In this document: positions 2,544-12,132 of the stretch, piece by piece
Layout of the letters: each line of letters starts with the position of its first letter
Position numbering within the stretch: the stretch's first letter is position 1
The notes under the pieces: model-generated
The model's database searches: none
What the model was told of the DNA's origin: nothing
The model's input: only the letters and a program-made list of their open reading frames with translations
Source: Octopus sinensis
Taxonomy: Eukaryota
Direction: 5' to 3'
Assembly: GCF_006345805.1 (NCBI RefSeq)
Contig: NW_021826606.1
Location: forward strand, 1-12,132
DNA length: 12,132 nucleotides
Position numbers and translations under genes: made by a program

Positions 2544-2934
2544 GGATGGATGGAGGCACTCCGTCGGTTACGACGACGAGGGTTCCGGTTGATCCGATCA
2601 ACGGAACAGCCTGCTCGTGAAATTAACGTGTAAGTGGCTGACCACTCCACAGACACGTGTACCCTTAACGTAGTTCTCGGGGATATTCAGCGTGACACAG
2701 AGAGTGAATAGGCCGGCCCTTTGAAATACAGGTACAACAGAAACAGGAAGTAAGAGTGAGAGAAAGTTGTGGTGAAAGAGTACAGCAAGGATCACCACCA
2801 TCCTCTGCCGGAGCCTCGTGGAGCTTTAGATGTTTTCGCTCAATAAACACTCACAACGCCCGGTCTGGGAATCGAAACCGCGATCCTACGACCGCGAGTC
2901 CGCTGCCCTAACCACTGGGCCATTGCGCCACCAC
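2544..2934 (-). mobile_element. Full-length tRNA-derived SINE with 11-bp TSD
   Basis: Minus strand A box TGGCCCAGTGG (2922-2912), B box GGTTTCGATTCC (2879-2868) and a (TCCA)n tail. Exact flanking direct repeat TTGCTGAATGT at 2533-2543 and 2935-2945. Confidence 0.93.
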
Positions 2935-3105: not shown

Positions 3106-3875
3106 CAGGGTGCGATGGGTCAATTATCGCCATTTATATTTTTAATTTCACGCATGCTTATTGTTTGTTTTTAATTTTGTCAACTACACAGTATAGCAGG
3201 GTCAGTTGGGCACCGTCTGTGAAACAAACAGAATCACGTAATTTACTCTGCCAGAAATTTAGAAACGACATACTGTACTGCTTGGCATTCGTGCCGAATC
3301 TCCAATACGAACATTTCAGAGTGTTTGTGTATCAAGCTGAGGACAGTGCAAAGGATTCGGAAAGAGTTGGATGAGTATAATGTGATTATGAAGTACGGCA
3401 GGTCGGACAACTCACTCTAATTGTACTGATAAGAAAAGAACTCCTGACTTTGTTGGTGAGATCCAGGCCATGGTTGACAATGATCCCTCCAAGTTAATCA
3501 GGTCCATCGCCAGGGACATGGGAGTGTATGAGTTTCTTATGAGGTACGTAGTGCATAAAGAAATTCGGCATTCCTCATACAAAATGAGAAAGGGCCAGTC
3601 TCTATCTCAAGCCATCAAGGACAAGAGAAAAGACCATACTATGAGGCTTTTGAACAAACTCAAGCATCCCCTACAACCGAAAATGCTTTGGCTTTTTCTC
3701 AGATGAGAAAAATTTCTGCCGGGATCAGATGGTGAACACAGAGAACAACCATTGGCTTGCCTTGTCTCCAAAACATGTATCGAGCGTGATAGAAATCAAA
3801 CATCCAGTCAACATAATGGTGTTTGGAATGATCACCACTGATGGTGACATTATGCCTCCATGCATCTTCCCACAC
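3106..3875 (+). mobile_element. maT/DD37D-like (Tc1/mariner superfamily) transposon, degenerate and 3'-truncated
   Basis: TA plus CAGGGTG end at 3104-3112. Frameshifted transposase: HTH (DNDPSKLIRSIARDMGV), SYKMRKGQ.LS, then after a frameshift at about 3695 FSDEKNF..DQMVNTENN.W...KHPVNIMVFGMITTDGDIMPP.IFP. D2 and D3 are missing, so the DD37D assignment rests on end and motif similarity only. Confidence 0.82.
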
Positions 3876-5435: not shown

Positions 5436-5750
5436 GTACATACGTGGCTTAGTGCTTAGGATATTCGGCCCACAATCGTAAGGTCGTGAGTTCGATTCCT
5501 GGAGACGCGTTCTGTCCTTGAGCAAGAGACTTTATTTCCCATTGCTCTAATCCATTCAGCTGGCAAAAACGAGTTATACCAGTAATTCAAAGGGGACCAA
5601 CCTTGTTACATTTTGTGTCACGTTCAATCTCCCTGAGAACAACATTGAGGATTACGCGTGGCTGCGGAGTACTCAGCCACTTGCACGTTCATTTCCCGAG
5701 TAGGCTGTTCCATTGATCGGATCAACTAGAACACTCGTTGTAACAACCAG
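5436..5750 (+). mobile_element. tRNA-derived CORE-type SINE, older copy
   Basis: A box TGGCTTAGTGC (5445-5455), B box GAGTTCGATTCC (5488-5499) and CORE-like GTCCTTGAGCAAGAGACTT. The 3' part (about 5578-5741) aligns with the reverse complement of about 2575-2735. Confidence 0.87.
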
Positions 5751-5761
5751 AATACCAGAAT

Positions 5762-5936
5762 ATGTGCAGTATATGCGATGCCTGATCAATACGTATCTCG
5801 ACTATTGCCATAGTAACGAAGCTAAAGCACGCAGAATGGCCATTTTGTACCAAGCGGTTTCATTCTGCGTGCTTTCGCTTCGTTACTATGGCAACTGTGC
5901 GAATACTTCTTCAACAGGCTTCGAATATATGCGCAT
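5762..5936. repeat. Long inverted repeat/foldback (MITE-like or hairpin RNA)
   Basis: Inner arms 5805-5838 and 5861-5894 are complementary at 33/34. Outer arms extend imperfectly (20/26 over about 5771-5796 vs 5903-5928). The spacer is 22 nt. Confidence 0.92.
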
Positions 5937-6065: not shown

Positions 6066-6272
6066 GTTTCTTTATTACCCACATAGAGGGGACAAACAAG
6101 GACAGACAAACGAATTAAGTCAATTACATCGACCCCAGTGCGTAACTGGTACTTAATTTATCGACCTCGAAAGGATGAAAGGCAAAGTCGACCTCGGCAG
6201 AATTTGGACCCAGAATGTAACGGCAGACGAAATACCGCTAAGCATTTCTTCCGGCGTGCTAACGTTTCTGCC
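6066..6272 (-). mobile_element. SINE of the same family as 11594-12012
   Basis: The reverse complement GGCAGAAACGTTAGCACGCCGG...GAGGTCGACTTTGCCTTTCATCCTTTCG...CACTGGGGTCGATGTAATTGACTTAA...GTGGGTAATAAAGAAA aligns end to end with the + strand copies at 11594-12012. Confidence 0.92.
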
Positions 6273-7845: not shown

Positions 7846-7903
7846 GTGGACAATTATGGCAATTATGGAGTGAATTTTTAGGGCTTATAAATCTAATATT
7901 CTC

Positions 7904-8771
7904 CTATCTTTCCTTCATATCCGCACCCGGTCTGCTTAGGAGGTTGTTGTGTCCTAGCATACGTGCTGCTTCTTTTAGTTTTCGTATTTTCCAATGGTGT
8001 TCTCTGTCTATTACTTTAACTTCATCCCACAGGGGGAGAAGATCTCCATTTTTCCATACATGATCATTCCTTCATGGTGGGTATCACGATCGCTACTTAT
8101 ATTCATTGCTCGATGTTTTAGGCCCTGAGCAATCCCTCTCTTTACACTGTATGGATGGTGGGAGTTGAAGTTGAGGTATCGTCCAGTGAAGGTCGGCTTG
8201 CGGTATACGGATGTCCTGCATCCATACTTGGTGCTTGTTATTAATACGTCTAGGAATGCTAGCTGATTGTCTTTTTCTTTTTCCCTTGTCTACTGTATGG
8301 ATGGCTTTATTGAGTTCACATGATCTAACAACACTTGGACATCTTCCTGGTGGGGCCAGAGTATGAAGGTGTCATCAACATATCGCAGCCATAGGGTTGG
8401 TTTTAGTGGTATTGATCCTAAAGCCAAATTCTCAAAGTATTCCATGTATATATTGGCTATTATCGGTGATAATGGCAAACCCATAGCTAAACCCTCTTCC
8501 TGTCGATATATATCAATGTCCATACTGAAGTACGCAGTTTCTACGCAGAAGGTCAACATTTCCATCAAGTTTCTTATTGGTATACTAGTGCGTTCTTTTA
8601 GTTTTTCTTGAATCGCCGATAGTGCTTCACCAGTTGGGACTTTGGTGAACAGACTTATCTCATCTAGACTCACCATCTGGTTGGATTCAATGGGGGTATC
8701 CTTGATCAATTCTGTGAAGAGGGTGGAATTCTTCACGTTCGATGTTGAGACTTTCCTGCTAATGGACTGAT
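7904..8771 (-). pseudogene. PLE reverse transcriptase/GIY-YIG endonuclease pseudogene
   Basis: VKNS..MVSLDEISLFTKVP..YRQEEGLAMGLPLSPIIANIYME..WLRYVDDTF. After the TAG at 8290 the same frame continues ..LAFLDVLI..TSVYRKPTFTGRYLNFNSHHPYSVKRG. At about 8063 it jumps frame to DHVWKNGD..PLWDEVKVIDREHHWKIRKLKEAARM, the distal half of the GIY-YIG domain. Confidence 0.93.
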
Positions 8772-8927
8772 TATATATGATGGGCTTCTTTCAGTCTCCC
8801 TCAACCAAATCTACTAACAAGGCTTTGGTCGGTCCGAGGCTATAGTAGAAGAGACTTGCCCAAGGTACCACGCAGTGGGACTGAACCCGGAACCGTGTGG
8901 TATAGAAGCAAGCTTATTATCACACAC
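8772..8927 (-). mobile_element. tRNA-derived CORE-type SINE (third family)
   Basis: Minus strand GGGTTCAGTCCC (B-box-like) followed by GGTACCTTGGGCAAGTCTCTT (CORE-like). Homologous to 10571-10678. Confidence 0.85.
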
Positions 8928-11164: not shown

Positions 11165-11593
11165 CCCACAGAAACACTATTTATAAACTCACAATATACT
11201 GAAAGTTTCGGTGAACTGGAGGGACTGATTTGCATGTATAACGCATTTTTATGGCCGTTAATTCGTCAATTAACAGTGCATAGCTTTAATGCCCTATACT
11301 GTATCCAGAATATATCTGTAAAAGATTGATTTGGAACCCAAACAACTGAAAGAGAGCTACCAGAGATGCAGCTATGACAGCTGAAATCAGTGCAAGGCGG
11401 TTGTGGTTGGCTAGAGACCGCAGAATGTGTTTTTTGTGTGGGTGAAGGTAAAGTATACAGATCAGGAGGCGAAACACTTGAGACCTTGATATATCTGCCG
11501 AAGGGATAGTTTTAGACACCATTGGAAGAAAAGCTTGCAATATTTTAAAGTTGGTTCTGCAGTTTCTGCAAGGAACAAAACATATCATTTCAG

Positions 11594-12012
11594 TGACGAG
11601 CTGGCAGAAACGTTAGCACGCCGGACGAAATGCTTTGAGGTATTTACACTGTGTGGATGGTAAGAATTGAAGTTCAAATTTCGCCGAGGTCGACTTTGCC
11701 TTTCATCTTTTCGGGGTCGATAAATTAAGTACCAGTTTCACACTGGGGTCGATGTAATCAACTTAATCCCTTTGTCTGTCCTTGTTTGTCCCCTCTGTGT
11801 GTAACCCCTTGTGGGCAGTAAAGAAATAGGTATTTTGTCTGCCGTTATGTTTTGAGTTCAAATTCCGCCGAAGGCGACTTTACCTTTCGTCCTTTCGGGG
11901 TCGGTTAAATAAGTACCAGTTTCGCACTGGGGTCGATGTAATTGACTTAATCCCTTTGTCTGTCCTTATTTGTCCCCTCTATGTTTAGCCCCTGTGGGCA
12001 ATAAAGACATAA
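11594..12012 (+). mobile_element. Dimeric SINE with 12-bp TSD
   Basis: Unit 1 spans 11594 to about 11828. Unit 2 spans about 11829-12012 and lacks the first 45 nt or so. B-box-like GAGTTCAAATTCC is present. Exact direct repeat ATATCATTTCAG at 11582-11593 and 12013-12024. Confidence 0.93.
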
Positions 12013-12132
12013 ATATCATTTCAGCCTTCACTGCCTGCATAGACAGATGTAGACATCTTGTCTTTCTATAACATATCTTCTATCCGGGGAGAGATGCTCT
12101 ATATAAAGACAAGCCTATTTCTATTCATTTCA

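Follow-up and report, generated by a model that had tools for sequence, protein, structure and literature searches.

Interrupted transposable elements (TEs) were used by Pace, Sen, Batzer and Feschotte (2009; PMC2671141) to find repair-mediated duplications. In the sections of that paper drawn on here, the donor lies within 5 kb for 824 of 1,136 human TE-interrupting duplicons, microhomologies measure 2–9 nt and deletions 1–15 nt, and all TE classes are represented (SINEs included), in other vertebrates as well as in human. The cut-off of at least 50 bp is given there as a limit of the method, and the donor was required at one other place only. The same sections tie these duplications, by many attributes in common, to the earlier short “doublets” (Thomas et al., as described in PMC2671141), which are short, local, non-tandem duplications attributed to imperfect break repair. 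Polymerase-theta insertions of 2–35 bp templated many kb away are cited in an excerpt of PMC7454005, and an excerpt of PMC10923293 describes patches from molecules “in the neighborhood.”

The locus described here lies in a 12,132-nt stretch of DNA from Octopus sinensis (contig NW_021826606.1 of assembly GCF_006345805.1), called the window below, which is the whole of a 12-kb contig in a 2.72-Gb assembly. A SINE copy in it is interrupted, relative to its sister copies, by a short piece of DNA from within 5 kb, as in the duplications described in the excerpts of PMC2671141: the likely donor is 3,502 nt away, on the same chromosome and past the >50 bp minimum of that survey, and the patch shows microhomology and a small deletion and has neither a polyA tail nor a target-site duplication. 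Unlike those duplications, the patch is 32 nt long rather than at least 50 bp, which places it outside their catalogue; its donor is a repeat (587 near copies, one of them a closer match than the neighbour); and the deletion of 19 nt slightly exceeds their 1–15 nt, in an invertebrate genome where the survey, in the sections used, covers vertebrates only. Doublets are near-identical pairs in mammals (PMC2671141, same sections), whereas the pair here is 88% identical. Polymerase-theta templated insertions resemble it in joining a deletion to an insertion, in having microhomology at start and end and in their size of 2–35 bp (excerpts of PMC7454005 and PMC10923293), whereas most templates described there adjoin the break and the one here, known from sequence alone, is 3.5 kb away. 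A germline break repaired with a copied patch is also what the available parts of PMC5110952 (class 2 TSIP) and PMC8421209 (MMBIR templated insertions) describe, but TSIP donors are distant, and the MMBIR screen concerns inverted templates within 100 bp as opposed to a direct one at 3.5 kb. The phrase “repair-mediated duplication” was not found together with invertebrates among the matches listed in our search, which does not establish that such events are unreported in invertebrates. As judged from the assembled DNA, the event shows the structural features of a repair-mediated duplication, below the published size cut-off and with a repeat as donor.

The patched SINE and its surroundings

The acceptor, SINE unit 1 (11594..11828, + strand), differs from the column-commonest letters at 5.8% of sites outside the patch and is followed directly by unit 2 (11829..12012, +), which lacks the 5′ head, begins at GGTATTT and has a normal 23-nt slot. 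The two are bracketed by a 12-nt target-site duplication, ATATCATTTCAG (left copy 11582..11593, right copy 12013..12024, both +), which suggests that the dimer was likely inserted as a single unit. A further sister copy with a normal slot, used for comparison, lies at 6066..6272 (−). The family has more than 26,000 copies and a target-site duplication, and carries box-like motifs while matching no tRNA in ARAGORN or Rfam. In unit 1 we take TGGCAGAAACG (11602..11612, +) to be a putative Pol III A box and GTTCAAATTTC (11672..11682, +) a putative B box, both located as motifs by the box consensus; neither ARAGORN nor Rfam finds a tRNA in the window, and the two boxes are to be read as motif calls. 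A run of four T (11708..11711, +), a possible Pol III stop, is present in unit 1 and absent from the two sister copies. The family also makes tandem multimers, in which the tail of one unit is joined to the next at GGTATTT without its 5′ head; such junctions are found at 11815-11840 of the window and at 48 places in the fetched loci, and the junction point coincides with the left end of the patch.

The window holds several other repeats. A second SINE-like family is present at 2566-2760 (+) and 5573-5741 (−), in two copies that are 79% alike, and it served as an independent acceptor family in the survey described below. A decayed mariner-type transposase with in-frame stops occupies 1063-2050 (+; HTH_48, E 1e-21; Transposase_1, E 3e-17), and the region ∼3300-3870 (+) is, by resemblance, presumably a second broken transposase-like fragment, within which the frame at 3392-3703 gave no Pfam match. 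An imperfect palindrome at 5802-5895, possibly a small inverted-repeat element, has a weak Rfam hairpin match below threshold. Rfam otherwise returned for the window just microsatellite matches under threshold, and a PDB search gave no match.

According to the original prediction, unit 1 carries between its boxes a captured antisense fragment of a Penelope reverse transcriptase (RT), and alignment within the window confirms the match from which it started: positions 11643-11674 (+) align without gaps to 8141-8172 on the same strand, with 28 of 32 letters identical and all four mismatches transitions. The runner-up 32-mer in the whole window, on both strands, reaches 19/32; the chance expectation for a match of the 28/32 grade in the window is ∼3e-8, and the identity is confined to the 32 nt, ending on both sides. 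The prediction was also right about the slot, where GGTATTT and CAAATT enclose 23 nt in each of the two sister copies (11829-12012 and 6066-6272), and about the microhomology at the junctions. On the left this is TTT (11643..11645, +; SINE GGTA-TTT, donor CTC-TTT) and on the right AGTT (11671..11674, +; SINE CTG-AGTT-CAAA, donor TGA-AGTT-GAGG), the latter running 3 nt into the putative B box. Since these letters belong to the SINE as well, the net new DNA is 25 nt (11646-11670); with 19 SINE nt lost, the interval gains 6 (58 versus 52). There is no polyA/T tail at the junctions, a feature of repair-mediated duplications. In SINE orientation the patch is antisense to the coding strand of the Penelope-type element, in which 8141..8172 codes NFNSHHPYSVK on the minus strand. 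Its own frame reads NFNSYHPHSV, in agreement with the predicted NFNSYHPHSVK up to the last residue, whose codon takes its end from the SINE and specifies N instead of K. The initial U to which the prediction drew attention is present, but it lies in the microhomology common with the SINE and is not diagnostic.

Source of the patch

The likely donor stretch (8141..8172, +) lies 3,502 nt upstream of the patch, on the same strand, inside a decayed fragment of a Penelope-type retroelement (7858..8776, −) that comprises RT and a downstream region (RVT_1, E=1e-10). This fragment is 81-95% identical to the copies fetched from the genome and has, relative to them, an internal deletion of ∼350-375 nt near 8061-8066. 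The C-terminal part of a sister Penelope copy resembles, at 0.96, clusters in which HTH_animal is present at 90-98% and GIY-YIG at 13-14%; the downstream frames scanned in the local element gave no direct Pfam match to GIY-YIG. RT together with a likeness to HTH_animal/GIY-YIG fits the architecture of a Penelope-type element.

The family offers many possible donors. The donor 32-mer at 8141-8172 has 38 exact copies and 587 within three mismatches genome-wide, and the patch 32-mer has 168 genome places within three mismatches; when the best 30 of these 168 were fetched, the 29 outside the window all had Penelope flanks. The best genome-wide match to the patch is 31/32 (on another contig), with 19 further places at 30/32. 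The patch differs from every Penelope copy in the assembly at one or more sites and is three letters off the commonest version of the stretch, and each of its variants is also found singly among family copies. The 38 exact copies have the neighbour's G in position 24 as well, and it may therefore be necessary to assign all four differences to changes in the patch. The probability of four differences is ∼0.06 at the 5.8% decay of the SINE and ∼0.24 if both copies decayed, while with 587 copies in the genome a random site has a probability of ∼0.002 of a copy of the stretch at 5 kb or less. This low chance of proximity, together with the near donors found below for about half of the clearly foreign patches, favours the neighbouring copy, and among the repair readings it is in all probability the donor. 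It should be noted that the contig stops 458 nt to the right of the patch and that a closer donor may exist on that side.

Against a local donor speaks the distant 31/32 copy, a better match than the 28/32 neighbour, and the original prediction had allowed that the donor may be another family member. That is possible, but the neighbouring copy is the likelier donor. The same repair scar would then have been templated in trans, by another Penelope copy or by its cDNA or RNA, in the manner of class 2 TSIP or by the uptake of retroelement cDNA into a break. Besides the 31/32 copy and the 19 copies at 30/32, this reading can point to foreign patches in other SINE copies for which there is no near donor, to distant-templated patches described in the available parts of PMC5110952 and to the Ty cDNA insertions described in those of PMC11724301. 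It makes the neighbouring Penelope copy a coincidence at the ∼0.002 level, however; a 31/32 match can recur among hundreds of decayed copies in which the patch variants each occur singly; and in L134, one of the other patched SINE copies, a patch derived from a repeat tracks its neighbour. We regard a template in trans as improbable.

The chimera is single-copy and has not spread. The exact patch 32-mer occurs once in the genome, as does the right junction between insert and SINE even with up to one mismatch, and the left flank of the patched SINE is likewise single, the assembly having this locus just once; the count of copies carrying the insert that the prediction called for is therefore one genome-wide. 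The window being an entire small unplaced contig of 12 kb, without a second assembly copy of the locus, the patch could in principle be an artefact of assembly or polishing. This is unlikely, and we give it very little weight, because the patch equals no Penelope copy of the assembly (it has four differences from the neighbour and at least one from every other, where a chimeric read would copy exactly) and because events of the same class, six in number, lie on chromosome-scale contigs. The unique left flank was moreover found in all four sequencing runs (Logan contigs), with 0-1 differences. One contig per run reaches 11615-11621, and none among the contigs listed, mapped to 11340-11830, spans the patch; Logan contigs lose rare variants, and non-spanning therefore shows neither presence nor absence of the patch. 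Depth in the 11646-11662 bin is 648/50.7/208.5/0.87 in the four runs, versus 48/7.4/57.2/4.9 on the flank.

Patches in other copies of the SINE

Copies were counted by exact anchors flanking the interval between the A and B boxes, and the numbers refer to copies with intact anchors. This A-to-B interval has its normal length in 26,506 copies, is longer by 6-36 nt in 84 and by 4-5 nt in 58, and is shortened in 836. In a control interval of 48 nt on the 3′ side of the B box, 29,119 copies are normal and 191 gain 6-36 nt. Length gains are thus scarcer at the slot than in the control (84/26,506 versus 191/29,119; Fisher odds ratio 0.48), although G-runs and a 40-nt duplication that recurs raise the control count. 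When all 84 lengthened A-to-B copies were extracted, they proved to be mostly local duplications, tail junctions and inverted copies of the SINE itself. Two SINE copies, L085 (G000:C16:49296536-49296623) and L061 (C5:83868390-83868503), hold within the A-to-B interval a nearly identical inverted copy of the B-box region, a patch of the snap-back type. The window copy stands alone among the 84 + 58 lengthened copies in that a foreign piece replaces the 23-nt slot, and alone among the 84 in that its patch starts at GGTATTT. Inspection by eye of the first 100 of the 26,506 normal copies and the first 100 of the 836 shortened ones revealed no long foreign piece.

We then searched the 10-kb surroundings of 32 lengthened copies for donors: 13 in the A-to-B interval (the window included), 15 in the control interval and 4 (out of 16 lengthened copies) in the second SINE family. 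Candidates were picked by a k-mer mask and by eye, those of the control interval from 100 of the 191 copies viewed plus all 42 with a gap of 59-78; the mask was too lenient, scoring just three foreign bases for the L128 patch. At 8 of the 32 loci, the window among them, the patch is 21-48 nt long and has a donor 1.2-3.9 kb away, a fraction that is not an unbiased rate in view of the choice by eye. Four donors are on the same strand as their patch: those of the window (28/32, −3.50 kb), L125 (24/25, +2.65 kb), L128 (G000:C10754:38147-40620; 30/33, +2.44 kb) and L133 (C1:132292610-132296517; 27/27, −3.88 kb). The other four are inverted: L134 (C5:108797915-108799218; 34/34, about −1.25 kb), L135 (21/21, about +3.3 kb), L137 (C9:7948816-7951823; 46/48, about +3.0 kb) and, in the second SINE family, L163 (27/27, about −2.2 kb). 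Four donors are upstream and four downstream, with two patches in each of the four geometries, and seven of the eight donors are 2–4 kb away, a regularity noticed post hoc. Near-donor patches occur in both intervals (three in the A-to-B interval, four in the control) and, weakly, in the second family, where L163 is a weak case because its donor is a common repeat end. Most of the eight have a few shared letters at their junctions, as seen against sister copies.

The specificity of these donors varies. The L128, L133 and L137 sequences have two matches each in the 2.7-Gb genome, the patch and its neighbour alone, and thus pass the one-other-place donor filter of Pace et al. The L134 donor is a repeat with 12 matches within two mismatches, of which the sole identical one is 1.27 kb away. 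For L125 and L135 uniqueness was checked against 560 kb of fetched DNA; the L125 patch was seen in its own locus alone among 163 fetched records, and a cross-locus control reached 20 versus 22 for L125 with a query that still contained SINE sequence. One of the eight patches is Penelope-derived and three donors are unique DNA; comparison of the other seven patches with 29 Penelope loci gave no match beyond 16 nt. No near donor was found for the remaining 24 loci, most of which are self-derived or short. About 7 of the 24 are clearly foreign by eye, and for five clearly foreign patches no donor was found out to the contig end or, where the contig allowed, 15-25 kb. The foreign-looking patches without a donor in the searched flanks include L126 (G000:C2663), L127 (C9062), L129 (C13), L136 (C7), L138 (C11) and L158 (C19), which possibly had distant templates. 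As a rough lower bound, there are 7 near-donor duplications per 2.8 Mb of SINE interval scanned.

These patches also bear on whether the piece could have been added at insertion, by a reverse transcriptase that switched template twice as the SINE dimer retrotransposed, as the original prediction had considered. The clean 12-nt target-site duplication around the dimer and the coincidence of the patch's left end with the GGTATTT at which the family's dimers are joined (48 junctions in fetched loci) would agree with such a switch. The other patches begin at unrelated positions, however, in two intervals and two families and with donors on both sides and both strands, and no second one among the 84 lengthened copies starts at GGTATTT; we consider a template switch highly improbable.

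Probable repair of a germline break

Very probably, the patch arose once, as a repair-mediated duplication with the neighbouring Penelope-type copy as donor; it most likely serves no function and is a neutral scar left in a decayed repeat. The templated repair event put forward in the original prediction is supported by the single-copy chimera, the microhomology, the near donor and the seven like SINE copies, and we read the patch as an ordinary repair scar because those other copies carry patches copied from DNA a few kb away. For a germline break in SINE unit 1, the Penelope-type element 3.5 kb upstream would have served as template, supplying 25-32 bases. Once the break had been resected, a 3′ end would have paired with the donor at one microhomology (likely AGTT) and been extended by a few tens of bases to the second (TTT), before leaving the donor and annealing on the far side of the break; either SDSA-like repair or polymerase-theta end joining, acting on flanking DNA that was resected or looped, could do this. 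From the assembled letters, SDSA-like repair, polymerase theta and a template switch at a fork would be indistinguishable. The four mismatches would be later decay and the antisense orientation a coin toss, all four geometries being expected if either end can prime, on its own or the opposite strand.

An anti-retroelement guide could still have arisen at this locus by accident, if the promoter of unit 1 still works and a ∼118-nt Pol III transcript (11594 to the T4 run ending at 11711) carried the antisense Penelope RT piece into a small-RNA pathway. We think this a long shot; if true, kilobase-range repair copying would be a standing source of such accidental guides.

CRISPR spacer acquisition and piRNA-cluster traps likewise place short mobile-element pieces in antisense within units that may be transcribed; unlike in those systems, there is here neither an array nor polarity, no series of acquisitions at one fixed site, and no bias toward mobile-element donors. 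The original prediction had speculated on a spacer-like system, in which Pol III SINEs would take up antisense retroelement pieces or piRNAs, always in one slot, and transcribe them into guides, and no such SINE-borne acquisition system is described among the matches listed in our literature search. A 32-nt piece antisense to RT between still recognisable putative boxes, in a phylum with PIWI/piRNA pathways (available parts of PMC6128900), would suit that idea, which we nevertheless reject as scarcely credible: the case is single, the slot is not enriched either in length gains or in near-donor patches (3 versus 4), the other patches sit at other positions, come from non-Penelope donors that include unique DNA and lie on both strands, and the patch has drifted three letters from the commonest version of its supposed target. 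The recurrent 25-35-nt antisense TE pieces that were expected at the slot were not found among the copies examined, which hold this one case and show no slot or strand bias. Capture of a piRNA fares no better: patches span 21-48 nt, which makes a length in the piRNA range uninformative, and the U at the start is the SINE's own.

By itself the single event is of little consequence. Short “captured” pieces with a donor in the same window usually belong to the class of repair-mediated duplications, and aligned SINE copies reveal such duplications of 21-48 nt with donors 1-4 kb away, under the size limit and beyond the vertebrate range of the 2009 survey. Aligning its SINEs would thus be an inexpensive way of observing how germline breaks are repaired in this genome.
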